Of a stretch of 64,000 bases of DNA, positions 19,841-64,000 are shown one piece after another; position 1 is the first letter of the stretch, and each line of letters opens with the position of its first letter. Source of the DNA: Candidatus Kapaibacterium sp. GTDB taxonomy: Bacteria > Bacteroidota > Ignavibacteria > Kapaibacteriales > UBA2268. The position numbers and the translations under genes are program-made. Location of the stretch: positions 169,132 through 233,131 of the forward strand of contig JAMLHE010000005.1 of the NCBI GenBank assembly GCA_023957315.1, given 5' to 3'. Under the pieces are notes generated by a model, which was not told the origin of the DNA, ran no database searches, and saw only the letters and a list, made by a program, of their open reading frames with translations.

Positions 19841-19866
19841 TTTTTTTCATTTTCTATAAAACTTTT

Positions 19867-19904
19867 GAGTGCCATTACGTCTTAAGTGATGGCACTCTTT
19901 TATT
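19867..19904 (+). terminator. Rho-independent terminator after the repeat lipoprotein
   Basis: gagtgccat-(13 nt)-atggcactc hairpin followed by TTTTATT. Confidence 0.6.
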
Positions 19905-19919
19905 ATTTCGCGAGTAAAT

Positions 19920-44718: not shown

Positions 44719-44979
44719 TTACAAATCTTTATAGACTTCATCGCGCTTGGAAATCTTTATAATTTCAATCGTTAGAATTTTATCTTGTATTGTATAAACA
44801 ATGCGGTATGAAGAAACGCGAATCCGATACAGATTTTCTTTGAGAATTAATTTTTTACAACCACGTGGTCTTGGATTTTTGGCTAAAGAAAAGATTTTCT
44901 CGTTAATAGATTCGAGAATATCAAGAGGCAATTTGTCGAGACTTTTGAGGGCTGTTTTCTTAATTAGAATCCGATACAT
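44719..44979 (-). CDS. RelE/ParE-family type II toxin
   Basis: 86 aa with the RelE/ParE pattern ...NPRPRGCKKLILKENLYRIRVSSYRIVYTIQDKILTIEIIKISKRDEVY. Overlaps the upstream antitoxin ORF by 20 nt. Confidence 0.8.
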   Translation of the reverse strand: MYRILIKKTALKSLDKLPLDILESINEKIFSLAKNPRPRGCKKLILKENLYRIRVSSYRIVYTIQDKILTIEIIKISKRDEVYKDL

Positions 44980-45193
44980 CCAATTTCTTCTTTTTCTTTA
45001 TGATGGATTCAATGCTCGATTTATAGTCAACAGATTCCTCATTTTTTAGAAGTTCGTAGGCAATGATATCCTGAATATCCTCGATGTATTCCAAAGTAAT
45101 TTTCTTTGGCGATTTCAGAGGAAGCAACAAATGGGTTTTTGCACCATTCTGGTCGGTTATAAAACTAATATCAGGCATAAGACTCCTTTTCAT
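44960..45193 (-). CDS. Antitoxin of the RelE/ParE module (small acidic protein)
   Basis: 77 aa, immediately upstream of and overlapping the toxin. Ile/Leu-rich N-terminal half and acidic C-terminus are typical of cognate antitoxins. Confidence 0.6.
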   Translation of the reverse strand: MKRSLMPDISFITDQNGAKTHLLLPLKSPKKITLEYIEDIQDIIAYELLKNEESVDYKSSIESIIKKKKKLDVSDSN

Positions 45194-45249
45194 TTTAAGA
45201 ATACTAAATCATCAAACGATATATCATATAAGATATTTCACATTAAATT

Positions 45250-45562: not shown

Positions 45563-45599
45563 TCAGATGGACTCCACCTCGCAGGTGGAGTCCATCTAA
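45563..45599. repeat. Truncated repeat unit: perfect 16-bp hairpin, likely also the leuD terminator
   Basis: tcagatggactccacctg-cg-caggtggagtccatct starts with the repeat's tcagatg. Lies 4 nt downstream of the leuD stop. Confidence 0.6.
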
Positions 45600-45603
45600 G
45601 CCA

Positions 45604-46104: not shown

Positions 46105-46105
46105 T

Positions 46106-47398: not shown

Positions 47399-47505
47399 AA
47401 TAACTCCAATTTTTTACAAATCCGTACAATACGGACATTAAATATAATACTTCGGATTTGCACCAAAGCACTATACAAAATTATGAAATTAAAGCATATG
47501 ACCTA

Positions 47506-47922
47506 TCAAACAGCAGTGTTTTCAAGTACAGGTTTTTCAAGTACAAAATGAACTTTTTCTTGGATAACTTCTTCAGTGAAAGGCTTGGAAATAAATGCCA
47601 CGGCACCGTTTGCGATAGCAAAGCGAAGGAGGTCTTTGTCAATATTTGCAGAAATAATTATCACAGGAATTGCTTCTGTGATTTCGATTTTCTTGAGTAA
47701 TTTCAACATAGTATCTCCCCTAATTTCAGGAAGAATAAAGTCCAATATGATAACATCAGGCTTATGATTTATCGCCATGACTATTCCGTCATAAGGATTT
47801 AGTGCCGAAAAAACAGTAAAATCCTTTTTTTCCAGAGAATGGGTTATTGATTTATGAACCCAGCTATCATCGTCAATCAGTAAAACCGATTTCGAGCTGT
47901 TTCCTGAAAAATTCTCAAACAT
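47506..47922 (-). CDS. Single-domain response regulator (CheY-like receiver)
   Basis: LLIDDD acidic pocket, phospho-acceptor Asp in IILDFILP, S in IIISAN, K in SKPF; 138 aa. Confidence 0.8.
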   Translation of the reverse strand: MFENFSGNSSKSVLLIDDDSWVHKSITHSLEKKDFTVFSALNPYDGIVMAINHKPDVIILDFILPEIRGDTMLKLLKKIEITEAIPVIIISANIDKDLLRFAIANGAVAFISKPFTEEVIQEKVHFVLEKPVLENTAV

Positions 47923-47931
47923 AACATAATC

Positions 47932-50157
47932 CTACGCCTTATTGAATGGAATTCTAAAAGTAATCAAATTGCCATCTTCAACGCCGAAAGTGTCAACAGT
48001 CAGCTTTGCACCCATTATATTAAAATAAGCATTAATCTTAGATATTTTGAGCAAAATATCTGATTTATCATCTTTGAGTGCTTCAATAGTATTATCCGAA
48101 TTCAATTTGTACATGCCTATCATTTCTGAGACTAATTTGTTCGCACCACCGAGAATTTGGACTTCGACAATTCTCTCATAAGCATTTTCTTGTGCTTGAA
48201 TTATTATTTCGGTTTTATCAATACCTGTAGAAAGTATGTCGAATGCATTATAGGTAGCGATTGTAATTGTTTCGATGTTACCGTAAACTTTGACTTTTTT
48301 GGTATCGTCATCAACAATGAATTTGACATTATGATTGACATCTTTATCCATAGTATAATGACTTTGGGCAGCATTATATATATCAACTAACTTAGCAGTT
48401 TCAAACGCAACTGCAGTTTTATCTTGGACAATTGTTGCGTCAATCATATCCGAAACGAAAGTGAAAATTTCTTCGCTGGATTCTTCCGCCAATTTAACAT
48501 ACGAATCACGTTCATCATCAGTTTCGTATAATTTACCCGTTACCATTTGCAAAAATCCCAAGATACCGGTAAGAGAATTTCGCAATTGGAAACTCATTTT
48601 TCTCATGAAATAGTTCTTCGATTCAATCGCTTCTCGCGCAAAAAGTTCAGCAAGTTTCAATTGCTTTTGTTGGAGCAATGTTTGTTCTTCTGCGAGTTTT
48701 TCGATTGTGACATCACGCCCGATGCAATAAATTAATTTGTCTTTGGGAGAAATAGTGAACGACCAATTGACCCATCTGAATTTTTCAGTCTGTGATTTCA
48801 TTTTCAAATAGGTTCTTTCGGTTATTTCATGGTCAGCTTTTATATTCAATATTTTGTTGAATTCGCGGAGATTTTCATCATCAAAAACATAATCATCGAA
48901 CGATGTTCCGATCACTTCGATTTCATCAACCCCGAAAATATCTTTAGCTGCGGGGTTCATGCTAATCCAATTTCGGTCAAATTTCATGACAGCGATAATA
49001 TCTTTAGAAGTTTCGACAATTCTGCGTTGCGACCTTGTCATACGGTCAGCCAATTCAAGTGCTCGAGAACGCGATGTGACTACAGCATAAACAAATCCAA
49101 AAAAGGCAAAGCTGATAAGTATAGAAATTATCAATGATGCTAAAGGCATATTGGCAGTTAATTGACCGCCAAAAGTAGGTGTTGTGTAGAATCTAATTGT
49201 GATTTCTCTATCGCCAATCATTATTGTTTCATCTTTCTGAAGCATAGGTTTATAATCAGAATCAATCAATGCAGAATTCGTAGATGAATAAATCGTAAAC
49301 AATTCACCGTTTTCGTCTTTATCATAAATTTTGTAAGCAATAGTAGTGTCAATCGGAGTATATGTGGTACCTACTAAAAATTCGTTCAAAAGAGCTGTTT
49401 CAAAAAACTTTTTAGCATTGAGTTCTACTGCAACCACACCGGCAAAATTATTTCTCCTATCGTTCAAATCTTCTCTTTCCGTGCCATATTTATAAATTGG
49501 AGTAATAAGATAAATTCCCAAAGTATCAGGTCGAGTATTGTAAAATCCTGTCGAGGTAGCTTTGTTATTATCACGAGCATATTCAATTGCATTGAACATT
49601 TGCTTTTCAGGAGCTAAATCGAAACCAATTCTGTGGATATTTCGGCTATATGGAATAGAATGATTGATAAGGTAATACAAATCACTTTCGTTATTACTTT
49701 GAATTTCGAAGTCGTAATAGCCTTGCGAGCGGACATAGAAAACGAACTCACTCAAAGAACTTTTCGGGACTTGAGCAATGTATGAAATCCCGGATATTGA
49801 AGTATAAGTTCTTGTGGGTATTGTGGCGTAAAGCTCGAAATAATCGCGAACAACGTCAATAATCAAATCATACAATCCGCTCATTGAAAAGAGCACTTCC
49901 AGATTTCTCAGATTAACGGTTTCAATACGAGATATTACATTAGTAGTCGATTTATTAAACTCACTTTGCAACTCACTTTCAATTTGATTGCTAACAATAT
50001 CCCGAACAAAAAAACTCAGTACCAATAAAATAATTAGTATTAGATAGGCAGGATAAGTTTTCTTTATGGAATGTATTCCGGCTCCCTTATGGGCAACATC
50101 CCTTAAAATCTTATCATATGATACCGTTTGTTTTACATCACTCATTCTATTTTCCAA
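47932..50157 (-). CDS. Membrane sensor with periplasmic domain, PAS domain and degenerate histidine-kinase core (phospho-acceptor His apparently absent)
   Basis: N-terminal TM, ~300-aa extracytoplasmic region, second TM, PAS-like segment, then a HisKA-like helix where the expected SHELRTPL is SFQLRNSL. The C-terminal ATPase-like domain lacks clear N/G1/G2 boxes but ends in a G-x-G...TFRIPF-like pattern. Confidence 0.55.
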   Translation of the reverse strand: MENRMSDVKQTVSYDKILRDVAHKGAGIHSIKKTYPAYLILIILLVLSFFVRDIVSNQIESELQSEFNKSTTNVISRIETVNLRNLEVLFSMSGLYDLIIDVVRDYFELYATIPTRTYTSISGISYIAQVPKSSLSEFVFYVRSQGYYDFEIQSNNESDLYYLINHSIPYSRNIHRIGFDLAPEKQMFNAIEYARDNNKATSTGFYNTRPDTLGIYLITPIYKYGTEREDLNDRRNNFAGVVAVELNAKKFFETALLNEFLVGTTYTPIDTTIAYKIYDKDENGELFTIYSSTNSALIDSDYKPMLQKDETIMIGDREITIRFYTTPTFGGQLTANMPLASLIISILISFAFFGFVYAVVTSRSRALELADRMTRSQRRIVETSKDIIAVMKFDRNWISMNPAAKDIFGVDEIEVIGTSFDDYVFDDENLREFNKILNIKADHEITERTYLKMKSQTEKFRWVNWSFTISPKDKLIYCIGRDVTIEKLAEEQTLLQQKQLKLAELFAREAIESKNYFMRKMSFQLRNSLTGILGFLQMVTGKLYETDDERDSYVKLAEESSEEIFTFVSDMIDATIVQDKTAVAFETAKLVDIYNAAQSHYTMDKDVNHNVKFIVDDDTKKVKVYGNIETITIATYNAFDILSTGIDKTEIIIQAQENAYERIVEVQILGGANKLVSEMIGMYKLNSDNTIEALKDDKSDILLKISKINAYFNIMGAKLTVDTFGVEDGNLITFRIPFNKA

Positions 50158-50163
50158 TTTAAA

Positions 50164-50535
50164 TTACGAATTAAAAACTCTTCTGATTTCAGCTACAAAA
50201 GTATTAACATCTACCGGTTTAGTCATATAATGTTTAAAACCATAATTAAGAAATTTTTCCTTGTCATCATAATCAGAATACCCTGTAACTGCAATCGCAG
50301 GTACATCCTTATTAAGAGCCGATTGTCTCACAATATTTAAAACTTCATTACCCGAAATATCAGGTAAAAGTATATCAGTTATTATGCCAAAACATTCGTT
50401 AGCCTTTAACCATTCAACTGCAGTTTGCCCATTTGGAAAATCAACAACTTCGTACCCTGCTTTTCTTAATAATGTAGAGAACAACATTCGGATTGGGTTG
50501 TTATCTTCAATAACACATATTTTTGATTTCGACAT
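50164..50535 (-). CDS. Single-domain response regulator (CheY-like receiver)
   Basis: VIEDN, phospho-acceptor Asp in IITDILLPD, T in AVTGY, K in TKPVD; 123 aa. Confidence 0.8.
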   Translation of the reverse strand: MSKSKICVIEDNNPIRMLFSTLLRKAGYEVVDFPNGQTAVEWLKANECFGIITDILLPDISGNEVLNIVRQSALNKDVPAIAVTGYSDYDDKEKFLNYGFKHYMTKPVDVNTFVAEIRRVFNS

Positions 50536-50571
50536 ATCTGCCTCTTTTATTATTCTATGTTTTAAATTAAA

Positions 50572-51942
50572 CTATTTTGAACTAATCACAATTTCTATTC
50601 TTCTGTTTTGTCGTCTTCCTGCTTCAGTGTTGTTCGGAGCAACCGGACTAAGCGAACCACTGAAAGTGGAAAGTACTTTACCCCCGGGCACTCCTCTTGC
50701 TATCAAATACTGTCGGGCATTGTTGGCTCTTGCCCGTGAACGTTCCGTATTTTCAGATAATGTACCTTGGTTGTCCGAATGCCCTACAATTCTAACTTCT
50801 GCATTTGGATTTGCTAACAAATAATTAGCGACGGCATCTAAATATTCTTTAACATCTTTTGACAATCCGGTTGAAGCTGATGTAGGGAATCTGAATTGGT
50901 TAGCCTGTCCCACAGCCACATTTATCATTGGTGTTTCAGGTACGGTTACTTTGGGTCGCTCAGTTTCTTTTAACTCGGAAGGTCGTAACTCGCCTAACAA
51001 CACCGGATTTTGGACTAAATCAATCGTCGCTGATGGCAAAGCTTCTGCGGGAATATATCTGGCAAATTCAATACCCCGCGAATCTTGAACAGATGCGAAA
51101 TAAACAGGTGGTGGCTCAAAAAGTGGGTCATATTTCAAAGTATCATAAAGGATTTTGTCTTTGCCAAGTTTAATTGCAAGTCCTGCTTTGGCGTAAAACA
51201 CATTCCATTTGCTTTCATTATCGCCTATAGATGAACTTGCAAGATGTAATGTAACAAATGGAGTCATCATCATGCGTCCCCAATTGATTATATCGGCTGA
51301 AAAAATATCATACCCGATTCCGATGTGGAGACCGAGTCCGGCTTTAAAATTGTTAATTGCAACGGTTTGGTCTTGGGAAATATCGCCCGTGTTTATGAAT
51401 TTTTTCCTTTGTTTGAAATCATCACCAATCATCAAATCAATATCAAGTCCGATTAAGCCATGCAATCCCGGAAGCGGAAAATTATAACGACCGTAAAGAT
51501 TGAAATTTACGAACGAATTTGCACCTACGACTTCATATTTTGTATCTAAAGAATCTTCCAATGGTCTGGTTTCGGATGTAAATGTTCGTTTGTCTATAAA
51601 GTTGATGCCGGCGCCGGCGCCCCATGTTTCATTTACGGGAATCCATTCGGCAGTTAGCCCAATAAAATAGCCCAATCCGGAGCCTGATGAGTAATTCAAA
51701 ATTGAGTTGAATGGGTTTTCTATTTCACCCGGGAATTGAAACAGATTCAGTTCGCCAAAATACAATAAAGCACTTGGTCCGCCACGAGCACCGAACCACC
51801 AATCACCATAGCTTCTGTTTAAGGCAATTGTATCTCGGTTTTTGTCTATATGCATGGTCTTGAATTCACCCTTCGGTGCTTGACCCGAGGCATCAGTATT
51901 TAATAAAACTATGAGTATAAGTATAATTAAAGTGCTTTTCAT
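50572..51942 (-). CDS. Outer-membrane protein with N-terminal beta-barrel-like region and C-terminal OmpA/MotB peptidoglycan-binding domain
   Basis: Signal peptide. C-terminal OmpA-like region RIVGHSDNQGTLSENTERSRARANNARQYLIARGV...NRRIEIVI. Confidence 0.75.
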   Translation of the reverse strand: MKSTLIILILIVLLNTDASGQAPKGEFKTMHIDKNRDTIALNRSYGDWWFGARGGPSALLYFGELNLFQFPGEIENPFNSILNYSSGSGLGYFIGLTAEWIPVNETWGAGAGINFIDKRTFTSETRPLEDSLDTKYEVVGANSFVNFNLYGRYNFPLPGLHGLIGLDIDLMIGDDFKQRKKFINTGDISQDQTVAINNFKAGLGLHIGIGYDIFSADIINWGRMMMTPFVTLHLASSSIGDNESKWNVFYAKAGLAIKLGKDKILYDTLKYDPLFEPPPVYFASVQDSRGIEFARYIPAEALPSATIDLVQNPVLLGELRPSELKETERPKVTVPETPMINVAVGQANQFRFPTSASTGLSKDVKEYLDAVANYLLANPNAEVRIVGHSDNQGTLSENTERSRARANNARQYLIARGVPGGKVLSTFSGSLSPVAPNNTEAGRRQNRRIEIVISSK

Positions 51943-51948
51943 ATTTTA

Positions 51949-53856
51949 TTATTTGCTCACCTGAAACTTGTAATTCATTTCTTTTTGATTCCATTTGACA
52001 ATTACAAAATAAGTCCCATTTTCAATATTGGTCAAATCAATATCATATTCATAAGAACCGTAATTCAAATCGCCATTATAAATCATTTGCCTCTTGACAC
52101 CGTTCAAATCAGCTAAAATTATTTCATACTTTGCTGTTTCCAACAAATCGAGAGCTAATTTTGCAAATTCCTTTGTAGGGTTGGGATAAAGTAAAATTCC
52201 GTTTCTTTCGTTGCCCACATAAACTCGTCTTACGTATTCTCCTTCGCAATCATAGACAATTACAATCAATCCGTTGATATAACGAATTGAAGGAATTTCT
52301 AATCCAATAATCTCAAAATCTAAAATCCTGACCGAGTCTCGGTCTATATACGAATATATCGCAAGGGAATTAAAATCAAAAATTTGTTCATCGCCGAGAG
52401 CAAAATTGCCTTGGAAAGTGATTGTATCGTAAATTTGCCCGGGTAATGAAGTGATGCCTATTTCGGGTTCCATTATCAAAATCGGGATTTCCAAAGTTAA
52501 GTTGAAATCGAAATCAGACTTTCCTGATTGTTCGAGAGCTTTAGAAATATTGCTGAATATAGGCAATTCAAAATTCGAACCTGCTGAGACAATTTTGTCA
52601 GGTACTTGAATGTATAAATCATTTTCCAATTCGTAATTTTCCGATGTCTCGAGTATAAATACTTCGTCATTGCTCCATACTTTGAACGAATTATCGCGTC
52701 CTGCAGAAGCAATTGTATCTAAGTTAGGCGTGATATCAAGGCTCAAAACGCCGCCACCGTGATTTAGTGCGATTTGGGTCAGTTCAGACATATTCCGAAC
52801 ATCATATTGCCTGATATAGCTATCTAATGAACCTGAAATCGCTCTGCTACCGTCAACTGACATTCTAACTGCTCGGATGTGTTGAGCGTGGGAATTAAAC
52901 GAAGCCAAATGATTGCCTTGTTCATAATCCCAAAGCCGAACAGTTCGGTCAACCCCACAAGTAACTATACTCGAATAGCTACTGTCGGTGTCTGCAGACC
53001 ATACGACCGTATTAGCAGTAACATTACCATGAGCACCTTTCTTTTCGATTGTGCTCGACTCAATATCAACTATATGCGTATAGCCTTCGTAATCGGTAAA
53101 TAATAATTTTGAGCCATCGAAGCCGAATTTGACCGAATAAATTATAGACGAAGTGCCGGTTTCATAAGTTTCGACTAATTCACCATTCGGGTAAAAAGTA
53201 TAAACTTTGCCATTTTCTGTGCCAACAGCTATTAAAGCATTGAAATCCGAATAGCTGACATTTCTAAAAGTAGTGCCATAATCTCGAGCATAGACCTCCT
53301 CACGAATGTCATTCAGCAAATCATAAAGTATCAACACACTATCTGTGACTGCTACGAAACCATCCGATAGGAAGAAAACTGCTTGTTTCAATACACCGGG
53401 CTCAATTAAAAATTCATCAATCATCGCGCGGCTCGGAATGTCCCAAATTTTTACTTTGTTGTCTTTTCCGGTGGTAATCAATCTATTACCATCGTCGGAA
53501 AAGGCGATTGAGCCTACTTCGGTCACATGTGCATCAGGCTGATGCCATATAAGGAAAGGCATTTCGAGCTCGTAACTTTTGACAATCAGCTCCAATTCAT
53601 CGGTATTTAAATATGGTACTAACCATTGGTAAGGCGGAGCAACAATATTTGAAGCTATTAGGTATTGATTCCCTGCGTATGAATAAAAAATATCCACAGG
53701 GTTAGGCTGGTCCATATTCCAAACGATATTTACAGTTTCACCGGAAAGGAGTTTTGTGCCGGCAATTGGCTCAACGATTGTAATTTCATTCTGAGCTTGG
53801 ACTGTCAAAATGAAAAGAAAAAACAAACTACAACATATCGTTGATTTAATTAGCAT
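51949..53856 (-). CDS. Secreted WD40-repeat beta-propeller protein with T9SS C-terminal sorting domain
   Basis: WD40 blades (...VKIWD, ...VRLWD, ...FKVWS). Signal peptide. C-terminus YPNPTKEFAKLALDL...YFVIVKWNQKEMNYKFQVSK is CTD-like. Confidence 0.7.
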   Translation of the reverse strand: MLIKSTICCSLFFLFILTVQAQNEITIVEPIAGTKLLSGETVNIVWNMDQPNPVDIFYSYAGNQYLIASNIVAPPYQWLVPYLNTDELELIVKSYELEMPFLIWHQPDAHVTEVGSIAFSDDGNRLITTGKDNKVKIWDIPSRAMIDEFLIEPGVLKQAVFFLSDGFVAVTDSVLILYDLLNDIREEVYARDYGTTFRNVSYSDFNALIAVGTENGKVYTFYPNGELVETYETGTSSIIYSVKFGFDGSKLLFTDYEGYTHIVDIESSTIEKKGAHGNVTANTVVWSADTDSSYSSIVTCGVDRTVRLWDYEQGNHLASFNSHAQHIRAVRMSVDGSRAISGSLDSYIRQYDVRNMSELTQIALNHGGGVLSLDITPNLDTIASAGRDNSFKVWSNDEVFILETSENYELENDLYIQVPDKIVSAGSNFELPIFSNISKALEQSGKSDFDFNLTLEIPILIMEPEIGITSLPGQIYDTITFQGNFALGDEQIFDFNSLAIYSYIDRDSVRILDFEIIGLEIPSIRYINGLIVIVYDCEGEYVRRVYVGNERNGILLYPNPTKEFAKLALDLLETAKYEIILADLNGVKRQMIYNGDLNYGSYEYDIDLTNIENGTYFVIVKWNQKEMNYKFQVSK

Positions 53857-53871
53857 ATATTTAGGTACAAA

Positions 53872-55185
53872 TTATCTTACGCCATCTTTGACGAGTTGGA
53901 CTTTGACTACCGCTCGGGATATTTCAATAGTAGGGTCATTGATGGGGTAAGCAAGCAAAACTATATTGTAAAGCCCTTGTGAAGCGAGTTCAGGGGCTGA
54001 AAAAATTGTATAATGTTCGCCCATTGGCATCAGTAATTTATCAAATTTCTCGCCTGTTTCAGGATGAGTTAGAAATTTGACTTGTTTACCCAACAAATCG
54101 CTTACAAAAGCTGTCAGATAAACGTCATCGTCAAGTTTGTAATTAATCTTGGTCGTAATATTGAATGGGTTTGGTGTTGCATTTGCCTGCACAATCACAG
54201 CATGAGGAACAGGCACATCACGAATAGCAAGCAATGAGTCGAATTCGTAGCCGTCGTCGTCAATCAAGCGCCCCCACAAAGCATAAGAATAATCGCCACC
54301 TCGGTATTGGACCTGGTCGTCGAATTCGCCATAAATGAAGCCCGATGGTGAAATACCTTGGCTCAGAAAGTCAGCAATGTAATGGTCGTAATCTACAAAG
54401 GTGCCGATAGTGTCTGTATATGCGACTTGTTCATCTGTAAATTTGTAACCTCTCAGTACTGTATAACCAACTGCGTTAATTTCCCGCCTTGTTGACCACC
54501 CATACTGCAAATTTGTTTGTCCGACGTAGCGTACCCAGAAATCTTCGAATTCAAATCCCCAGGGTCGCCTGTCATCATAACCAATAGTAAAAGTGTTGTT
54601 TCTGCCATCGTGAATTTCGACATTATCGTCAGCATAATACCAAGTGACATTCCTTTCAATCGAATCCGTCTCGATTTTATATGCTACTGCTTGGTAATAA
54701 TATTGGGGCTGCAGCCAATCAATACGATTCGGAATAGGGTCTCCCCCATTTTTGATAAGTCTGAACTGACCTAAGAGTAGCGATGTATCAAGAGGTACTT
54801 CCATGCAATCAATATAATTTTCGGGTCCCAGAATTGTAATACTAAACCGTTCGTCATATTTTTGATACTCGATTAAATACTCTTTTTTGGGCAATCCGGC
54901 ACCCGAAATTACAGTTTCCGGCAGGTCGGTCTCATAAAGCTGAATTTCAAAATCATTCGAATCAATTGTTATTCCTTGCGGAAAAGTAAATTGAAATGTT
55001 CCGTTTACAAATTTCAGCCATTTGTCCGAATTTCTCTGAATCCGAAGTTGGAACTCAAGTGTATGAGAATTAACTAAATAGGTATTATTCACATTAACAA
55101 AAGCAAGCGTATCCAAAGCATAAATATTAGTTACGCAACTGATAAAGACAAACAAAGCAATTATGAATATTTTTGCAATTTTCAT
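53872..55185 (-). CDS. Secreted protein of unknown function with T9SS-like C-terminal domain
   Basis: Signal peptide MKIAKIFIIALFVFISCVTNIYA. C-terminus TPNPFNITTKINYKL...LYNIVLLAY...KVQLVK. Confidence 0.6.
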   Translation of the reverse strand: MKIAKIFIIALFVFISCVTNIYALDTLAFVNVNNTYLVNSHTLEFQLRIQRNSDKWLKFVNGTFQFTFPQGITIDSNDFEIQLYETDLPETVISGAGLPKKEYLIEYQKYDERFSITILGPENYIDCMEVPLDTSLLLGQFRLIKNGGDPIPNRIDWLQPQYYYQAVAYKIETDSIERNVTWYYADDNVEIHDGRNNTFTIGYDDRRPWGFEFEDFWVRYVGQTNLQYGWSTRREINAVGYTVLRGYKFTDEQVAYTDTIGTFVDYDHYIADFLSQGISPSGFIYGEFDDQVQYRGGDYSYALWGRLIDDDGYEFDSLLAIRDVPVPHAVIVQANATPNPFNITTKINYKLDDDVYLTAFVSDLLGKQVKFLTHPETGEKFDKLLMPMGEHYTIFSAPELASQGLYNIVLLAYPINDPTIEISRAVVKVQLVKDGVR

Positions 55186-55216
55186 ACAAGACTTTTTCCC
55201 GTTAGCTTGGATTTCA

Positions 55217-57322
55217 TCATTGTCTTCTATTATTCCAGCTTATATTAAAGTCACGTGTATTGATTAGACCGTCCATGTTGTAGTCTGCGTTGAAAAAGCC
55301 GTATTTTGTAAAACCAATCCACGAACCTTCGTGGTCGTAGTTCATCGTATAATTTTGAGTAACATTGAAAATGCCACCCATTACAGCAACATCTTCGTTC
55401 AAGAAGCCGCCTTTGAGCGCAAAAATCCTTTGCCCTAAGTCGTTGATTTCGACAATTTTCATAGATGCTTCCGAGCCTTCAATCAAACCGGGTTGACTAA
55501 AATCGTACAAAAAGCTGTTATTTTGCGGAAATATAGCTAATGGTTCGGCAGTGATTATCGGAGAGTGATTTCTGTGACGAATTACAAGGTGGTAATTTCC
55601 GCCACCGGAATCAATTCCATCTTGACGAGTAATTCTTATGTTCGAATCTCCATGAATGTCAAACAATCTGCCATCCGGATGCAAATATACAGTCTTATAG
55701 AAGCTTGCTTGTTCATTCCTTTTTTTCCTAAATTCAAGCACAACAAAATCAACTGCCGAATCAGGGATTTGAGTTATCAAAGTTGGGTCGAATTTTGTAT
55801 CGAGATTAATCGGATAAGCATCATAATTTGTCTGTGCGAGCAATCCCCTATTATTCAGTTCAGTATGCATTCTGCCCTGATTTCCTTTCAGATAAGGACC
55901 TTCGAGGTACATTCGAGCATTAAGAATAATTGAAATCATACCGGGCAAACCAATTGCAAATTCGCCAAATTGCGATATTGATTGGACATCGCTAAATGCC
56001 CAATTTGTAGCAAAATCAATCGTAGGTTCATTCGAATCGAAGTCAAACCAATTATTACCAATCCAAAGTTGCAACAGCAATTCCGGTACAGGCAAATTAC
56101 CCGTTTCGTGGAATTGTGCATTCTGCAAATGTCTCCAGCCGAACCCAAAACTGGCTGCCATTCCTTGGTCAATCGGATTGTTTGATTCGTCGAATCCTTG
56201 CAAATTGATTATTCTCTGTACTTTTTCATCGCCACCGGGATAAGGTTGATAAGTCAAGGGTCTGACTGTACTTACTATACGCGTAATTGCTGCCATATCA
56301 GCTTGATTAGCAAATAGCAACCAAGTATGGGGATTGTTGAGCAAGATTGTGTCACCAAACACTAAGTTAGTTCGTTCAAAATTGCCTGCAATTTCAGCAG
56401 CATCATTATACCCTGCGTAAACAGGATTTATATCCGCTGTAAAAGTAAGAGTATCTTCAAGCGTATTGACAGTGGCTCCGACAAATAGTGAATCGTTCAC
56501 GGTCACATTTCTGGAAAGTTCAGTATTGCCTGTATTTTGGACGTACAAATCTTTTAGAACCGACTTATCAGACGGCGTTTCAGGACCGGTGACCAAATCA
56601 CCTGTGCCGATATAGCGAATGTTGACTGATGCTTCGAATTGAGGCTCTACGGCGAGTGATGCTCCGACATTTCGGACAATCAGCGTAGTATCCTGCATAG
56701 TGAAGTTGTTTTCCTGTGAATTCCGAAGCTCTCCTCTGTTTAGTTTGAGTTCTTCATCAATCAGAAAACCACCGCTTACAACGTTGACACCATGGGGATT
56801 ATCTATCATTAATTTCGAAAATGAACCAACACCCATCAAATCTTGGGATTCATTTTCGGCATTAAGGACGATATATCGTGGACCTGAATATTTAGCATTA
56901 TTCTTAACAGTAGATTTCGCGTGAACGTCTTCGGGCTCATAACCTATCCAACGAGTAGTGAAATGTGCACTATCAACAACAATCAACGAATCAAGAACTA
57001 CCAATGGCTTGATAACATTATTGGCATCTCTCAAATCATGAACGATTTTTTTTGCTTGGTTTGCGATTACTAATTGGAAGTAAACAATATTCGGGATAAC
57101 TTGCTGCGAAGATTCTACCTTTTGCAAAAATTCTACTCTACCACCAAGCGTATCAGGCAAACTCTTCACCTGACCATTTTTAACTCTAATGGTACCTGAG
57201 TTTTTGATAGCACCTCCTGTATTATCAATTGCGTTTTGGGCGTTAGCTCCCAAGCCTGCAATTAATAGTAAGATGATGGTGATGGTGATATTTATTATAT
57301 TTTTTTTCATTCTTTCTTTCAT
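55217..57322 (-). CDS. Large secreted protein of unknown function
   Basis: Signal peptide. 701 aa. N-terminus carries an NTGGAIKNSGTIRVKNG motif related to the C-termini of the two upstream giant ORFs. Confidence 0.6.
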   Translation of the reverse strand: MKERMKKNIINITITIILLLIAGLGANAQNAIDNTGGAIKNSGTIRVKNGQVKSLPDTLGGRVEFLQKVESSQQVIPNIVYFQLVIANQAKKIVHDLRDANNVIKPLVVLDSLIVVDSAHFTTRWIGYEPEDVHAKSTVKNNAKYSGPRYIVLNAENESQDLMGVGSFSKLMIDNPHGVNVVSGGFLIDEELKLNRGELRNSQENNFTMQDTTLIVRNVGASLAVEPQFEASVNIRYIGTGDLVTGPETPSDKSVLKDLYVQNTGNTELSRNVTVNDSLFVGATVNTLEDTLTFTADINPVYAGYNDAAEIAGNFERTNLVFGDTILLNNPHTWLLFANQADMAAITRIVSTVRPLTYQPYPGGDEKVQRIINLQGFDESNNPIDQGMAASFGFGWRHLQNAQFHETGNLPVPELLLQLWIGNNWFDFDSNEPTIDFATNWAFSDVQSISQFGEFAIGLPGMISIILNARMYLEGPYLKGNQGRMHTELNNRGLLAQTNYDAYPINLDTKFDPTLITQIPDSAVDFVVLEFRKKRNEQASFYKTVYLHPDGRLFDIHGDSNIRITRQDGIDSGGGNYHLVIRHRNHSPIITAEPLAIFPQNNSFLYDFSQPGLIEGSEASMKIVEINDLGQRIFALKGGFLNEDVAVMGGIFNVTQNYTMNYDHEGSWIGFTKYGFFNADYNMDGLINTRDFNISWNNRRQ

Positions 57323-57372
57323 AACACCCCCTAACCCCCTCTTAAAAGAGGGGGAAATGGGAGTAATTAAAA

Positions 57373-59544
57373 TTATTCGCCGACTTCGATTACGCCTTCG
57401 TTGTTGATTGTACCTTGGTTAGCAATTTGGAATGTACCAAATCCGGGAGTACCGGCACCAAGTGAGTTAATCAACCAAAGACCGTTGAAATCAGTTTTGT
57501 TTGCTGAACCTTTAGCAATTGCATAAGGGAACGCTGCAGTAGGAGCATTTGTATTGTTGTTCAAGAATGATGAACCACCGTCAAATGAAGTATGGAAAAT
57601 GTAGGAAGCAGTGTTATCTTCGTTACCAATAATAATCGAAGCATTTGCATAAGCGTCAGCAATAGTAATCGTTCTTGCTGCTGCATTTGTACCATAATGG
57701 TCAGATTCTGCTAATGTGTTGTTAGCTGCTACACCATCAGTACCGCCCGGAGTTCCAATAAATGGACCATCTATACCAACATAAACTGCGTGTCTGATTT
57801 CAGTATCGTCAAGTGATGAAGGTTGCGTACCTTCGTCCCAAGTGTTCGGGTTTGTCCAACGACCATCGTCAACAGTGTAGAAAGTTGTAGGTCCGGCGCG
57901 AAGAATCACGTCGTTGCCACTTGCAAATCTGTCAAGGTCGTTAGGTAATGCCGTATTAGCTGCTCTTGCGATACCTGCTAACGAAATTTGACCTAAGTCA
58001 GCACCGGCAGCAGCAGTTCTGTTATAAACTTGACCTGTACCGATTTTTTCATCGTCGCCTCCTGCATTACCTTCATGGAATCTGATTGATGCTTGTGTAT
58101 TTGGTGCATCCCATAATGGGGCTCCGGGACCTTCACTAAACAAATAACCAACAGCTAACTCCATGTCGAAATCAGCGGCAGCATTATGAGTAAGATTGAC
58201 ACTTCTGTTCACGTCAGTAGCAACAACCCATGCAGGCATTGTAGTACCTTGTCCGGGACGCATTTCGATTGTTGCTAAAGTTGGGTTATTAGCATCTGCA
58301 TCTAAATCAATTGTAGTATTTCTGTTGTTGAATACATATGAAGCTGCTGTTGCATCCATTGTACGAGCCATAGAACCTACAACTTCTTCATTTCCTGTTC
58401 CACCGCCGTAAGTAGCAGTACCGGCAACGGCTAACATAGTAAGAGTACCAGTGTTAGTGAACATATCGAAATTGCCGCCTGTAAGAGCAAAGTTATTACA
58501 TAGGAATATGTCATTTGCATAATTTGCAGCAATATCACCGCGTTTCGCACCATTGGTCAAAACCAAGTTACCATAAGAGTTGGTAGTCAATGTCGGCATT
58601 ACTAATTGTGGGTTTTGTGTACCATCATAAGTAACTGTTGACAAACAAGCAAATAACAAGTTAAGACCATTACCGCTATTGATGATATCACCAGTGATAG
58701 TTAAGTTCGTGCTGGCAGCAAAATCTAAGAATGAATCGTCGCCACCAAGAGTCAAAGTAGAAGCGCTACCTACAGTAACTTCGCCTGCGCCTGTAGCTGC
58801 AGAAATCGTACCTGAATTTACATCAACATCAGCATTGAAATCAACTGCACCTGTACCAACAATCAATTCAGCGGCTACGTCGTTGAATTCAACTTCGCCA
58901 TCTAAAGTAGAAGTACCTGTACCTGTATATAATTGACCAACTATTGCTAATGTTGTACCGGCATCAGAATCAACATTTAAAGCAGTACCAACGTCATCAG
59001 TACCAAGTATAGTCTTAGTTCCGCCACCGGAAAGAGCTAAGATATTGTAGTCAGTACCACTTGCACCGGTTGTTTCGGGAAAGAGATTTTGTGGGTCTGA
59101 ACCGCCGTAAGTGAATGTACCGGCATATGTTCTGTCACCACCTGTTGCATAGTAAGGGTAGATGGCTAAATTATCATAACCCGGTAAAAATGTAGCACAA
59201 GCTCCACCCATTACGAATACTCCATCTTCTACGTTTTTAGTAGAAGTGCCGGAAGTATAAAGTAAAGAATAGTACAAACCTTGAACAGTTTGGTTAGAAC
59301 CGTTTCCTGCCCAATCAACAACACCGGGAATAACGCTTCCGGCAGTTTCACCAAGGTTAGCACCACCAGTATTTTCAAATTTGCTCCCATTTCCTTTCAT
59401 GCGGACTACTGCACCGCAAGTAGCATTGTAATCAGCAGAAGCTCCGTCACTGACGAAGTCCTGGGCTGTAGCATCGCTGATAGCGAAGAAACATATAAAA
59501 CATACAGCAATGGCTGATGTTTTGAGTAAAAGTTTAAAATTCAT
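57373..59544 (-). CDS. Large secreted Gly/Thr/Asn/Ala-rich (beta-helix/adhesin-like) protein
   Basis: Probable start at the ATG at 59544 (MNFKLLLKTSAIAVCFICFFAISDATAQ signal peptide); the track start at 59637 adds 31 unlikely residues. Low-complexity GT(G/A)TS and NxGxI repeats. Ends ...GTINNEGVIEVGE. Confidence 0.65.
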   Translation of the reverse strand: MNFKLLLKTSAIAVCFICFFAISDATAQDFVSDGASADYNATCGAVVRMKGNGSKFENTGGANLGETAGSVIPGVVDWAGNGSNQTVQGLYYSLLYTSGTSTKNVEDGVFVMGGACATFLPGYDNLAIYPYYATGGDRTYAGTFTYGGSDPQNLFPETTGASGTDYNILALSGGGTKTILGTDDVGTALNVDSDAGTTLAIVGQLYTGTGTSTLDGEVEFNDVAAELIVGTGAVDFNADVDVNSGTISAATGAGEVTVGSASTLTLGGDDSFLDFAASTNLTITGDIINSGNGLNLLFACLSTVTYDGTQNPQLVMPTLTTNSYGNLVLTNGAKRGDIAANYANDIFLCNNFALTGGNFDMFTNTGTLTMLAVAGTATYGGGTGNEEVVGSMARTMDATAASYVFNNRNTTIDLDADANNPTLATIEMRPGQGTTMPAWVVATDVNRSVNLTHNAAADFDMELAVGYLFSEGPGAPLWDAPNTQASIRFHEGNAGGDDEKIGTGQVYNRTAAAGADLGQISLAGIARAANTALPNDLDRFASGNDVILRAGPTTFYTVDDGRWTNPNTWDEGTQPSSLDDTEIRHAVYVGIDGPFIGTPGGTDGVAANNTLAESDHYGTNAAARTITIADAYANASIIIGNEDNTASYIFHTSFDGGSSFLNNNTNAPTAAFPYAIAKGSANKTDFNGLWLINSLGAGTPGFGTFQIANQGTINNEGVIEVGE

Positions 59545-59732
59545 ATAAACTCCAATAAAAATAAGAAAAAAAGTAGATTTCAATATAAAAAATAATTCTC
59601 GTAGTAATTCAAATTTAACTATTTCAACAAATACCAAATTAAGTACAATTACTTAATTAACATATAATATACATTATAATTTACAATTATAACTATAAAA
59701 CACAATATATTTCTAATAAATCTTATGCCAAA

Positions 59733-62700
59733 TTATTGCCCTAAGTGAATAATACCTTGATTTACGATAGTTGCACTATTAATTACGTTACCCAATATAT
59801 ACAAACCATCGGCTTGTAAGTTATTCAGAGTTGATGAATTACGAACACTGATGTTCCCTCTGACCAATAATTGACCATTAACTGTCTTATCTCCCGGGTT
59901 GCTCACAAAAACGCCACCCAGCCCACCAGTGTATAACACTACATCTTGAATCAAATTTAATGGCAAATCACTAATGGTTTGAGCAGTTCCGTTGAAATCA
60001 ATCCAACTGTCAACCGGCAAATTGTACGACAAATAGTTGTTCAAAGCCGTTTCGAGAGAATTTGTCCCACCAACGCGCAAAATTGTATTGCTTTCCTGCC
60101 AATAGCGAGAATTTCCTGCCGAATTAGCGATATTTGCCTGTAAATCCAAAATTCCCAAAATAATTGAAAGTGAATCACGGGTAATCACATCATCAGTTAA
60201 AGTTACGACATTAAGTCCCGCTGCCCCGGAATTAATCACAGTCAAACTTCGGACGCTATCAGGTAAACCATTCCCTGTAACTTGATTAATTGCAGCTTGG
60301 TAGTAGAATTTTCCATTTTTGCTAAACGAGCGAGCAATAACGGATTGGACACTTCCTAGTGGATTGCCGAGACTTGTAATGCCATCAGGAGAACCGATAT
60401 ATAATGAAGAGAAATTCTCCATAGTGAAATGGTCTGCAGAAATGATATTATTTCCGGTAACCAAAGTTCCAGTATTTGAAATACTTGTGCCGAGAGCTAT
60501 GCCGCTTTCAAATCCGGGCAATATCGGGTCGTTGATGTCAAGATTGACCACATGATTTCCAACCCCTGCATTTCCACCACCGATGATTGCCGAATCTTGG
60601 AGCATATTTGGGAAAATTCCTGCTCCTGATATTGGTCCGGCATGTGCGGGATTATATGTCCAAGTGTTTTCGTCGGTCCAATTGCCTGTTTGGCGGCTAT
60701 AGAATATGCGACGGAAATAATCTACACTGCCTGTAGTCCAATCGCCTGTGAATTCGTTATAATCATAACCCGCATCAGTTTGGAAGAAGTTACCGGCAAT
60801 ATTAATTGTCGGCGGATTGAACGGGAATGCCCAAACCCCCGGAATGCGTTCACGAGTGGGGCGCCATCTGCCAATACGGACGAAATCAGATTCATTATTA
60901 TAAACATCGTCGTCAACATAGTTGAAAGTCCATTGACCATTGATTTGAGCACTAACGCTATCAATTGTCCAATATCGTTCGATGAAAGATGAATATGGGC
61001 TGCCTGACGAGCCACGATGTGCCTCTAATGGCAATACTCCGGGTGATGTTCTGACACCGATTCTTCCGGCAGTACCTATACCACCGACAAAAACTGCCGG
61101 AGCATAGTAGGTATCCGAACCAACGGGGTAAGTATATGTCAACGATGGATTAATAGCTCTTATCAAAAAGCCACTTTCGATACTTGTTCGGACAAATCTA
61201 TTAGCTCCAAAATTCAGAATTGATGTCAAAGCCGGATTCTGTATCGTTAGGTGGACACTATCATTCAAGGAGAAAAATGTATTAGGATTTGCAAAATTCA
61301 ATTGATTGGCAATATAAACATGAGTCCGAGTAGGATTGTTCAGAACAGGACGATGCACAATTACATCACCACCAAGAATATTGACGTTGTTGAAATTGAT
61401 ACCCGAATTATTCCGAATTACTATATACTTATCATTTAATCCGCCAAAATTGACCGATGAACTTGTAGGTGTTAATTTTCCATCATTGACAACAGAGTCA
61501 ACTGCAGCTACACCATACAAAGTTAAATTTCTATTACCGGCATTGAATGTACCTTGCCTAATCAAAAGCGTATCTTGTACTCTGACAACTGGTCCACCGG
61601 GGACAGACATAAACACAGTTTTGTTTACGGCGCCCGGATTGTCAATAATTATTGATTTGACCGAATCAGGAATGCCTGTTCCGGTATTTTGCGAACCAAA
61701 AGAGCTGTTGTAATGATAACGACTAACACCGAAATTACGAATATTAGTTTGCACAGCCCCCGAGAAACCGTTTACAGAAGGCGTAATGCCATTCAAGTGC
61801 ATCAAGCCAATCGTACAACTATCTTCGAGTATAAAGCTTGTTCCTCGAATGTAATTAAAGGAGCCGACTATATAAAGCGAACCCGGAAGTCCGTCATAAC
61901 GTTCAACAATGACAGAGCGGACGGTATCTTGGTATCCATCGGGCAGAGTAACAGTTTTGCCATATCCGATTCGTACAATATCCGTTGCTTCATTTGGAGT
62001 ACGAGTTGCAGGTGTCAAAGTAGTGTATCCGCTCATAGACCAAGTATTAATATCATTCCAACTGCCATCGTTATAGCTCCAGAAAGTAATACCGGAAGGC
62101 TCGCCGAGGGCAAAATCACCAAACGTTGTATTATTAATTGATTTAGAACTCGTATCTGTTTTAGCTGATGTAAACAAATCAGACCATACACCTGCTGAAG
62201 GAGGATACGGCGGATTGTATAGATATTGCTCGTAGAATAGTGGGTCGCCACCGTTTATATCCTGTGGATTCAAGAAGAACAAAGTAGCATTGAAAGTTCT
62301 GGCGCCTAAATCAAAAGCACCACTGGTATTAATATTCCAATATTTCTGAACATTGGTAGAAGTATTGAATGCTGAACTTGCCGTATCGGGATGAGCGTAT
62401 TCGTAAGCTCTGACGCCTACAAGCCCGACAGTCCCACCTGCACCGACAGTTTCAAAAATTACCGGACGATAACTATCTAAAGTATCAGCCCCGACGGGGA
62501 ACAATACTTCGGCATTTCCGGTGGCAAGCTCACGATACAGCCTGCCAAAGACGTGACCCTTGCCAACTCTGAAAACTTGCGGATTACTTCCAACCATAGG
62601 GCTTAGCTCGACAAATCTGTTTGTAGCCGAAGCATCTATAAATGATTGGTTGGTGGTTGAAAATTCGAGCGAGTTCCGAACCACTAAATCTGAATTTCCA

Positions 62701-64000
62701 ACTGCAGATAATAACACATTACCTGAAGCTTTTATTAATCTAATGTTATAAATTTCAAGTGGCGACGATTGCGATAGCAAAGTTTGGTCAGCCGTTCCGT
62801 TTAACGAAATCAACCAAGCGTCCGAAGTTGGTCCCGGAGGAACTCCAACGAAATTACCATAGTTACTTAAATTACCCGCAAGATTTACCGTGCTGCCATT
62901 GAGATTGAATGAATGATTATCGTCAATAGTCCAATCATTTTTAATCGTAAAGTTTACTTCGTTAATTTGTGTAGATACAGCATTTAGCGGATTATTGGCA
63001 AATAATAGATTATAAACAGGCATAGTACCGGACAATTTCACGATTGTATTATTCGGAGTTAGAGCGGTATCACCCGACTGAATCATACCACCTATCATAC
63101 CTGTACCGTTTTGAGCACTGACCCTGTAATCTGCTACAGAAGTCGTTGTGCCTCCGGCGTTGGCAATTACAATTCTGCCATCAGACATGGAGAAAGATGA
63201 ATTGGAATTGCTTATATCAAAACCGATATTTGTAGATGTATTGCCGACAGTATTGACAAAAAATTCATTGCTTCCTGCAAGATTGAAATCAATTTCGGAT
63301 GTAGTCAAATCTCTCGCAAAAGCTCCGGCAACTCTGACAGTGCCAAAGTTTTGGTCGAAAATAGTACCTGTCCTATAAAGGAAATGTTCGTTCGGACTAT
63401 CACCGACCCACAAATCGCCATTGTCAAGTACAATTGTTGTTGACGAGTTTGAAGTCACAGTTGAACGAGTGCGGATTGAGCCGTTAGAAATGTGAATCCC
63501 CGTGTTGTTACCCATATTGATGGGGTTTCCATCGGTAGAAATATACAAATCAGTTGGGAAATTGTGCGATAGAACTCCGGAATTTAAACCAATACTATAA
63601 TTTGCAGTTGTATCACTTGCAATGGCAAAATTTGGAGAAGAAATAAATAAGGAATCAAGCAATCCCCCATCCTTTTCAAGGATAATATCGCCGAGTCTGC
63701 CCCAATTTCCTGTACCTGAAATCAATGAATTCTCATCGCCAACAAATTTAATTGTTGTAGAATTATCATTGTCGTTCCGCAGAGAAACGCTTGCAGTCGA
63801 ATTGTTTTTGATGCTGCCGGTGATTTGGATAGTATCTCTTCTGCCGCCGACAGGTGTAGTTCCCGTAATCATACCATCTTCGTCAAGGAACATCTCCCTC
63901 ATTTCCAAAATTTTCTCGGCAGGCGAATCGCTAAATTGCAATATACCTTGACCCGGATTGGGGTTTGAGCCTCCAACCCTCAATGAATCAATTGAAATAT
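59733..64000 (-). CDS. Giant Gly/Asn/Thr/Ser-rich surface (beta-helix/adhesin-like) protein; 5'-partial (start beyond window end)
   Basis: Frame open for >1416 codons to the window edge (the track 'M' at 63983 is a TTG codon). Ends ...VNQGIIHLGQ. Confidence 0.65.
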   Translation of the reverse strand, partial: ISIDSLRVGGSNPNPGQGILQFSDSPAEKILEMREMFLDEDGMITGTTPVGGRRDTIQITGSIKNNSTASVSLRNDNDNSTTIKFVGDENSLISGTGNWGRLGDIILEKDGGLLDSLFISSPNFAIASDTTANYSIGLNSGVLSHNFPTDLYISTDGNPINMGNNTGIHISNGSIRTRSTVTSNSSTTIVLDNGDLWVGDSPNEHFLYRTGTIFDQNFGTVRVAGAFARDLTTSEIDFNLAGSNEFFVNTVGNTSTNIGFDISNSNSSFSMSDGRIVIANAGGTTTSVADYRVSAQNGTGMIGGMIQSGDTALTPNNTIVKLSGTMPVYNLLFANNPLNAVSTQINEVNFTIKNDWTIDDNHSFNLNGSTVNLAGNLSNYGNFVGVPPGPTSDAWLISLNGTADQTLLSQSSPLEIYNIRLIKASGNVLLSAVGNSDLVVRNSLEFSTTNQSFIDASATNRFVELSPMVGSNPQVFRVGKGHVFGRLYRELATGNAEVLFPVGADTLDSYRPVIFETVGAGGTVGLVGVRAYEYAHPDTASSAFNTSTNVQKYWNINTSGAFDLGARTFNATLFFLNPQDINGGDPLFYEQYLYNPPYPPSAGVWSDLFTSAKTDTSSKSINNTTFGDFALGEPSGITFWSYNDGSWNDINTWSMSGYTTLTPATRTPNEATDIVRIGYGKTVTLPDGYQDTVRSVIVERYDGLPGSLYIVGSFNYIRGTSFILEDSCTIGLMHLNGITPSVNGFSGAVQTNIRNFGVSRYHYNSSFGSQNTGTGIPDSVKSIIIDNPGAVNKTVFMSVPGGPVVRVQDTLLIRQGTFNAGNRNLTLYGVAAVDSVVNDGKLTPTSSSVNFGGLNDKYIVIRNNSGINFNNVNILGGDVIVHRPVLNNPTRTHVYIANQLNFANPNTFFSLNDSVHLTIQNPALTSILNFGANRFVRTSIESGFLIRAINPSLTYTYPVGSDTYYAPAVFVGGIGTAGRIGVRTSPGVLPLEAHRGSSGSPYSSFIERYWTIDSVSAQINGQWTFNYVDDDVYNNESDFVRIGRWRPTRERIPGVWAFPFNPPTINIAGNFFQTDAGYDYNEFTGDWTTGSVDYFRRIFYSRQTGNWTDENTWTYNPAHAGPISGAGIFPNMLQDSAIIGGGNAGVGNHVVNLDINDPILPGFESGIALGTSISNTGTLVTGNNIISADHFTMENFSSLYIGSPDGITSLGNPLGSVQSVIARSFSKNGKFYYQAAINQVTGNGLPDSVRSLTVINSGAAGLNVVTLTDDVITRDSLSIILGILDLQANIANSAGNSRYWQESNTILRVGGTNSLETALNNYLSYNLPVDSWIDFNGTAQTISDLPLNLIQDVVLYTGGLGGVFVSNPGDKTVNGQLLVRGNISVRNSSTLNNLQADGLYILGNVINSATIVNQGIIHLGQ

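Follow-up and report, generated by a model that had tools for sequence, protein, structure and literature searches.

The gliding adhesin loci of Flavobacterium, SprB/SprF, encode surface-type proteins that are very large and repetitive, together with outer-membrane partners, in a lineage that bears a type IX secretion system (T9SS). In characterised systems, proteins with T9SS type-A tails are exported and become covalently bound to the cell surface. Among signalling proteins, DivL of Caulobacter is a pseudo-histidine kinase that works with the single-domain receiver DivK. In Cloacimonadota, a T9SS-tail-anchored cohesin scaffold with dockerin partners, resembling a cellulosome, has been inferred (PMC8542988). 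Here we describe a gene cluster with some likeness to each of these systems. It lies in a stretch of 64,000 nucleotides (nt) from Candidatus Kapaibacterium sp. (GCA_023957315.1, contig JAMLHE010000005.1, positions 169,132-233,131 of the forward strand), which we refer to as the window. NCBI taxonomy places Kapaibacterium in Bacteroidota.

The cluster is represented in the window by nine genes, named g1 to g9 in the order of transcription, from position 64000 down to 47506 on the minus strand. We class it as a T9SS-linked surface adhesin or fibre locus with its own two-component control. Conservation of the cluster is well supported and a surface role plausible, and we give a probability of about 0.5 to the reading that the cluster encodes a fibre or adhesin complex of the cell surface together with its regulation. 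Its closest conceptual parallel is a cohesin scaffold anchored by T9SS, with partners tagged by dockerins. Literature searches found no published description of the cluster.

Gene order and its conservation in relatives

An initial annotation of the window had proposed a tightly packed nine-gene operon. The open reading frame (ORF) listing placed all nine genes on one strand at the positions it had given:

g1: 59733..>64000, minus strand; open at the window edge, with 1,421 amino acids (aa) visible, the C-terminal part of a giant protein
g2: 57373..59637 (754 aa, from a TTG) or 57373..59544 (723 aa, from an ATG, with signal peptide), minus strand; large protein
g3: 55217..57322, minus strand; 701 aa, secreted
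g4: 53872..55185, minus strand; 437 aa, secreted, three beta-sandwich domains
g5: 51949..53856, minus strand; 635 aa, secreted WD40 beta-propeller with T9SS type-A C-terminal domain
g6: 50572..51942, minus strand; 456 aa, outer-membrane protein with OmpA domain
g7: 50164..50535, minus strand; 123 aa, single-domain receiver
g8: 47932..50157, minus strand; 741 aa, CHASE-PAS-HisKA membrane sensor
g9: 47506..47922, minus strand; 138 aa, second single-domain receiver

With g2 read from its ATG, the gaps from g1 to g9 are 188, 50, 31, 15, 6, 36, 6 and 9 nt. The spacing of 6-95 nt reported earlier was therefore too narrow for g1-g2 (188 nt) and correct for the other junctions, which measure 6-50 nt.

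We scanned one genome per species with an alignment of g3, which gave 25 loci (designated by L numbers), and compared all window proteins to these loci by tblastn. The order g2-g3-g4-g5-g6-g7-g8 was kept in 18 of the 20 genome loci that were long enough, at 22-50% identity overall, and in relatives as distant as 33-48%. The two exceptions, L015 and L024, both lacked g6-g8. In every locus of sufficient length g3 and g4 were neighbours. Scattered orthologues in related genomes, which the initial annotation had named as an outcome that would refute its proposal, were thus not seen. Dozens of Kapaibacteria/Ignavibacteria-like genomes, all uncultured, share the order. Its recurrence in 25 loci from genomes and about 20 from metagenomes shows that the arrangement did not arise by chance.

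The window ends inside the giant g1, and in nearly all loci this ORF was still open 10 kb upstream of g3. A metagenome scan with the N-terminal part of the giant found L041. Across the segment used as query L041 and L002 are identical, and L041 extends 10 kb further; g1 of L002 is itself 94% identical to g1 of the window. The order in L041 is NAD synthase, a LuxR/NarL-type regulator, a gene that we call g0, the giant and g2. The regulator has 217 aa and consists of a receiver and a GerE domain (LuxR/NarL-type). At full length the L041 giant has 3,678 aa and its own signal peptide, and in L026 and L028 it reaches 4,128 and 4,138 aa, in that order. The product of g0 (L041 3132-6530) has 1,132 aa, a signal peptide and seven near-identical tandem repeats of ~92 aa, and its ends are tail-fibre-like segments. 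Against Pfam it gave no credible match, only three chance-level matches, none with a qualifying stretch. The protein g0 reads like a fibre protein, and it is kept upstream of the giant in many loci. Among the metagenome loci, regulator-g0-g1-g2-g3 was complete in about 7 and g0-g1-g2 was present in 14. A word-indexed search with the giant gave two proteins, its candidate list being saturated by low-complexity words.

The complete order is a LuxR-type response regulator, g0, g1, g2, g3, g4, g5, g6, g7 and g8, with g9 added in some genomes. The whole cluster, which is lineage-specific, is thus ~30 kb long; the window contains its 3' 16.5 kb, and the 5' start lies ~13 kb beyond the window edge. 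The proposed nine-gene operon stands as a conserved unit, but it is not self-contained, being the 3' half of a larger cluster. Its last gene, g9, belongs to close relatives only; among the loci, L002 and L003 have it, and L010 has it fused to a kinase.

Gene content varied elsewhere as well. The WD40 gene g5 was gone from L011 and L013, and judging by its absence from these two loci g5 is dispensable. L004, L005 and L025 had no g1 upstream of g2; L004, the one inspected, carries there genes for PD40, an extracytoplasmic function sigma factor, a 446-aa protein and a DUF4397 protein, and no g0. In L011 a Schlafen AlbA_2/HATPase_c_4 gene (8830-9993) is inserted between g2 and g3. We conclude that the conserved core is g2-g8, plus g1 in most genomes.

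At the other end, the array had been thought to stop at 47506. The run of same-strand genes continues past this point through leuC/leuD-like genes, with gaps of 107 and 1 nt, as far as a strong hairpin with a 17-bp stem 3' of the leuD-like gene (45599..45563). We rejected the leuCD-like genes as members of the system, since they adjoin the cluster only in L001-L003. A consensus scan found no excess of promoter-like sites (69 versus a background of 62.6 +/- 7.4) or terminator-like sites (14 versus 13.8 +/- 3.2). With both counts at background, the sequence alone neither splits the array nor proves an operon. Rfam and tRNA scans of 44000-64000 returned no match.

The variation in gene content could mean that a structural block merely lies beside an unrelated two-component module. 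Such a division would fit the differences between genomes in g9 and the downstream kinase genes, and the absence of g6-g8 from L015 and L024. It fits poorly with g6-g7-g8 following g3-g4(-g5) in 18 of the 20 long loci, down to ~35% identity and with short gaps, or with the second regulator conserved at the 5' end. We regard two separate units as very improbable.

Most record titles of the loci were Kapaibacterium/Kapabacteria, Ignavibacteria or Bacteroidota. Homologues of g3 (n=41) were all ~690 aa long and all lacked a Pfam domain; those with a source name were labelled Kapabacteria, except one labelled Chloroflexota. An exact-sequence look-up of g3 in the contig index gave no record. L002, L003, L009, L012, L013, L017 and L019 are among genomes titled Desulfobulbaceae, Hyphomicrobiales or Chloroflexota, and their cluster proteins group with Kapaibacteria/Ignavibacteria. 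The odd titles on these metagenome-assembled genomes (MAGs) are probably the result of mislabelling or mis-binning.

Three paralogous beta-helix proteins

Each of g2-g6 has a visible Sec signal peptide, as does the giant at full length. In g2 the cleavage context is ...DATAQ/DF, with the slash marking the cut, and across orthologues both g2 and g3 have conserved mature N-termini. Profile-profile comparison with hhalign found homology between g2 and g3 in the ~400 aa at their N-termini (97.8%, E 8.6e-13) and a relation of g2 to the modules of g1 (88.9%, E 2.4e-6). The giant is built of about six modules, each marked by FYSxxxGxWxDxxTW. Orthologues of g1 and g2 all end in the strictly C-terminal motif NxGxIxNxG(V/I)IE(I/V)G(E/Q/N)-COOH; for g1 the variants extend to NxGxIxNxG(V/I)I(E/H)(I/L)G(E/Q/N). 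In the window the extreme C-terminus of g2 is ...NQGTINNEGVIEVGE, a motif common to g1. The AlphaFold2 (AF2) model of g3, with a predicted local distance difference test (pLDDT) score of 83, shows a right-handed parallel beta-helix (residues ~40-340) and two beta-sandwiches; the C-terminal tail is modelled with low confidence. The helix is of the three-sheet, pectin-lyase-like kind. Taken together, these comparisons show g1, g2 and g3 to be predicted Sec-exported paralogous beta-helix proteins. The beta-helix nature first suggested for the two large proteins g1 and g2 is borne out by this paralogy and by the fold of g3.

No Pfam or NCBIfam model matched g1-g4 at E<=0.01, and the profiles of g2, g3 and g4 found no meaningful match among PDB sequences. 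These results, and the lack of a paper on the cluster, agree with the earlier statement that it matches no described system. By these searches the main cluster proteins appear to belong to no described family, at least five of them (g0-g4) having no family assignment. The set also differs from autotransporter and two-partner adhesins such as pertactin, Ag43, Hap and Fap2: it has no translocator beta-barrel and no TpsB/POTRA partner, and it places three paralogues in series, with extra beta-sandwiches and conserved terminal motifs.

A fold of this kind is just as characteristic of polysaccharide lyases and hydrolases. The cluster might on that account encode a cellulosome-like surface complex for glycan processing, with g1-g3 as lyases, hydrolases or binders held on T9SS-anchored g4 and the CHASE domain of g8 sensing the substrate. 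Sequence models of carbohydrate-active enzymes and lyases, however, match neither g1-g3 nor their homologues. The structural matches of the beta-helix have 4-13% sequence identity to any enzyme, and the same list holds non-enzymatic adhesins. A repetitive giant of 3,700-4,100 aa and the tandem-repeat g0 also look structural rather than catalytic. We consider a glycan-processing complex fairly unlikely.

T9SS tails and the outer-membrane protein

The product of g4 divides into three domains:

g4 D1: 54571-55113, minus strand; residues ~25-205, cohesin-like
g4 D2: between D1 and D3, minus strand; FN3-like
g4 D3: 53875-54195, minus strand; residues ~331-437, divergent T9SS type-A C-terminal domain

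The AF2 model of g4 (pLDDT 86) has three beta-sandwich domains, and its structural matches include the T9SS tail-bearing PorU, the C-terminal domain of mirolase, and PorZ. Foldseek put multi-FN3 chains on top, and cohesin sequence models found no match. A T9SS C-terminal domain had been assigned to g4 by the initial annotation. Profiles did not detect the tail in the window copy, but they found Por_Secre_tail in 18 of 33 homologues, one of which NCBI names 'T9SS type A sorting domain-containing protein', which supports the assignment at the level of the family. For g5, the WD40 propeller with a T9SS C-terminal domain was confirmed: Por_Secre_tail (PF18962) scored 33.4 bits (cut-off 27) over residues 556-631, and with the C-terminal fragment TIGR04183 reached 27.8 bits (cut-off 23). 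In the C-termini of g0-g3 (last 150-250 aa), models for T9SS tails of types A, B and C found no match even at E<=10, and the whole proteins gave none either. Within the cluster, then, type-A tails are predicted on g4 and g5 only.

The description of g6 as an OmpA-domain outer-membrane protein proved correct. Its peptidoglycan-binding OmpA domain (PF00691) scored 55.1 bits (cut-off 27.2) at residues 356-447, and the N-terminal barrel-like region matched OMP_b-brl_2 below threshold (23.7 versus 27). All 14 orthologues examined had the OmpA domain and 5 of the 14 had OMP_b-brl_2.

These tails and partners bear on the analogy with SprB and PorP/SprF drawn at the outset, in which giant T9SS type-B cargo would be paired with a PorP/SprF-like outer-membrane partner. 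The cluster does place giant repetitive surface-type proteins beside an outer-membrane protein, the genome is T9SS-rich, and the window has several further T9SS cargo genes. The family tests gave the opposite answer. The type-B tail model TIGR04131 matched none of the nine proteins, C-terminal fragments included, at E<=10, and PorP/SprF (TIGR03519/PF11751) matched none of the nine window proteins or the 14 g6 orthologues. The outer-membrane protein g6 is OmpA-type, the T9SS tails are all type A and sit on the small g4 and g5, and g1-g3 carry no T9SS tail at all. Unlike SprB/SprF loci, to which its sequences are unrelated, the cluster also has WD40 and signalling genes. The analogy thus fails, and an SprB-type gliding adhesin locus, largely refuted by these negative tests as far as family models can tell, retains only the slimmest chance.

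Alternatively, g0-g3 might stay in the periplasm or associated with the outer membrane, forming a structure inside the envelope tied to peptidoglycan by g6. Their Sec signal peptides, unaccompanied by a known outer-membrane export signal, and the peptidoglycan-binding domain of g6 are consistent with this location. Their partners g4 and g5, however, have T9SS tails and should end outside, and to our knowledge giant beta-helix and tandem-repeat fibre proteins are almost always extracellular. An envelope-internal structure is in our judgment quite improbable.

A C-terminal module with a dockerin-like tail

The C-terminal part of g3 contains two features:

g3 C-terminal module: 55220..55957, minus strand; residues ~456-701, consisting of a LEGPY linker, an RHRNH beta-sandwich and the dockerin-like tail
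g3 dockerin-like tail: 55220-55402, minus strand; residues ~641-701

In g3 orthologues the last ~60 residues hold two segments resembling Ca-binding loops, GDVNxDGxIDxxD...W followed by DxNxxGIVNTxDxNxSWNN. The window copy has an intact second loop (DYNMDGLINTRD) and a degenerate first loop, the latter being intact (GDVNxDGxIDxxD) in distant orthologues. A profile of the tail gave only sub-threshold matches in the PDB; 4 of 11 were dockerins (E 0.16-3.5), and 5lxv_B aligned across both loops (E 0.16, also sub-threshold). Pfam Dockerin_1 (PF00404) was seen in 2 of 21 tail members at E 0.26. Together with the invariable adjacency of g3 and g4, the dockerin-like tail led us to hypothesize that g3 docks on g4 in a manner like cohesin and dockerin.

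The module is not restricted to g3-type proteins. Run as an exhaustive profile search, the g3 alignment gave 10,982 cluster representatives at E<=1e-3, 8,442 at E<=1e-10 and 240 at E<=1e-30, counts in which module bearers and beta-helix matches are inseparable; full-length g3-type proteins number only about 80-100. Among the matches listed, many cover only profile positions ~455-693, mostly at their own extreme C-terminus. The bearers that we scanned have unrelated N-terminal domains (GDSL lipase with LamG, sortilin/BNR, polysaccharide deacetylase, beta-helix), with weaker pectinesterase-like and subtilase-like matches in some, and the few with an organism name are from Kapabacteria or Ignavibacteria. 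No Pfam or NCBIfam model covers the module, and among window proteins g3 is its sole carrier. Its occurrence on diverse secreted proteins is what one would expect from a domain for sorting or anchoring.

The arrangement resembles the Cloacimonadota scaffold in that g4, with a cohesin-like beta-sandwich and a predicted T9SS domain, stands beside g3 with its dockerin-like, two-loop tail of the Ca-binding type. As in cohesin-dockerin systems, the tail module is common to many otherwise unrelated secreted proteins. Cellulosomal scaffolds have tandem cohesins, whereas g4 has a single cohesin-like domain, and the docked g3 would be a beta-helix protein in which no enzyme domain is recognisable. The g3 tail, unlike classical dockerins, is joined to a conserved linker and beta-sandwich of ~180 aa, and neither it nor g4 D1 passes a sequence-model threshold.

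A bolder extension, unlikely in our estimation, is that the last ~240 aa of g3 are an undescribed, widely used module that Kapaibacteria/Ignavibacteria-type bacteria employ at the C-terminus for display or sorting. Thousands of different secreted proteins would carry it as a tag for docking on T9SS-anchored cohesin-like receptors such as g4, an arrangement that would add a second tier of display atop T9SS. The cluster would then form a head-to-tail fibre, with g4 as anchor followed by g3, g2 and g1 at the tip, joined through the terminal motifs of the beta-helix paralogues.

A pseudo-kinase sensor between two receivers

Response_reg (PF00072) matched both receivers, g7 with 77.4 bits and g9 with 76.2 bits, and the acidic pocket, phospho-accepting Asp, Thr/Ser and Lys residues of receivers are visible in each. 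The phospho-acceptor context of g7 (IITDILLPD) is intact and g7 is conserved in the cluster, while g9 is an accessory part. The sensor g8 consists of a transmembrane segment, a CHASE domain (residues 104-284), a second transmembrane segment, a PAS domain, a HisKA dimerization and histidine phosphotransfer (DHp) domain and a degenerate catalytic domain. HisKA scored 28.4 bits (cut-off 26.9) and HATPase_c gave no profile match to g8.

The N, G1 and G2 boxes were absent from the C-terminal domain in all 17 aligned g8 sequences, and we conclude that this family cannot bind ATP in the usual way. At the position of the phospho-acceptor His, g8 of the window has Phe523 (TTC, 48589-48591; SFQLRN). The H-box His is kept in 14 of the 17 sequences, as HQxRN or HTLRN, and is Phe in the window, L001 and L002. 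We take the replacement to be real because two nucleotide substitutions are needed and it was seen in three independent assemblies. A true kinase is encoded beside g8 in L004 and L010. The trio of receiver, pseudo-kinase and receiver proposed earlier is thus supported by the profiles and by an ATP domain that is degenerate family-wide, but the loss of His is confined to the window lineage and g9 to close relatives.

Like DivL, g8 has a replaced phospho-acceptor His and lies beside single-domain receivers. It differs from DivL as a membrane CHASE/PAS sensor whose catalytic domain is degenerate throughout the family and whose His is kept in most orthologues, and the likeness implies no cell-cycle role.

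A model for assembly and control

We propose that g4 is a surface-anchored scaffold whose cohesin-like D1 would bind the Ca-loop dockerin-like tail of g3. The proteins g2 and g1 (and g0), which lack an anchoring tail and share the terminal motif, may join as further fibre subunits; g5 would serve as a scaffold, and g6 may tie the assembly to the wall. Having a DHp domain and lacking a functional domain for ATP binding, g8 would not act as an autokinase; for the receivers g7/g9 it would instead be a phosphatase, a partner in phosphotransfer or a scaffold. In the window lineage, where the DHp His is Phe, signalling would proceed by binding rather than by phosphotransfer through g8. The likely output is the LuxR-type regulator encoded first in the cluster.

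Several points weigh against a surface fibre or adhesin complex. The main weakness of any such model is that g0-g3 have no recognisable outer-membrane export signal, and their surface location is assumed. The beta-helix fold, as set out above, is shared with enzymes. The dockerin assignment is sub-threshold, with a degenerate first loop in the window and pLDDT <50 for the tail in the AF2 model. Members g1/g0 and g5 are missing in some genomes and are hence not essential, every cluster-bearing genome is an uncultured MAG, and co-transcription of the cluster genes cannot be read from sequence.

A prophage or tailocin was also considered, given the tailspike-like fold of g3 and a weak 'phage tail collar' match in g0 homologues. 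We rejected it, as other phage genes are absent and the cluster keeps its place on the chromosome, together with envelope and regulatory genes.

Neighbouring features in the window

The leuC/leuD- or homoaconitase-like pair that follows g9 after 107 nt encodes aconitase-family large (430 aa) and small (166 aa) subunits (45604-47398, minus strand). Beyond it, within 44400-45650, lie three copies of a 125-nt direct repeat with 79-95% identity, flanking a ParE-type toxin gene (PF05016, E 5.7e-11); a 77-aa ORF upstream of the toxin gene, and overlapping it, is probably the antitoxin. The hairpin at 45599..45563 overlaps a further partial copy of the repeat and may belong to the repeat element rather than being a dedicated terminator. 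Positions of these, of other T9SS type-A cargo, in which the neighbourhood is rich, and of a peptidase gene are:

125-nt direct repeats: 44592-44716, 45259-45383 and 45415-45539
ParE-type toxin gene: 44719..44979, minus strand
77-aa ORF, probable antitoxin: 44960..45193
BNR/sortilin proteins, T9SS type-A cargo: 33617..36235 and 42850..44481, both minus strand
protein with IgGFc-binding domain, T9SS type-A cargo: 37802..40831, plus strand
S8 peptidase of 1,435 aa, with FG-GAP repeats and a C-terminus weakly resembling FlgD_ig: 19920..24227

This peptidase gene and the 754-aa gene beside it (together 17576..24227, plus strand) were considered as a second copy of g1 and g2. They were rejected, the 754-aa product having CarboxypepD_reg/SpaA repeats.

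Significance

The cluster is a defined, conserved genetic unit for a probable cell-surface structure in a poorly known, uncultured branch of Bacteroidota/Chlorobiota. If docking of g3 on g4 is true, it would join non-covalent display of the cohesin-dockerin type to T9SS anchoring outside the cellulosome context, and it would give a role to the C-terminal module of very many unannotated secreted proteins. The g8 family provides a natural series from a His-containing sensor without an ATP domain to a fully dead pseudo-kinase, and is useful for studying how such proteins signal.

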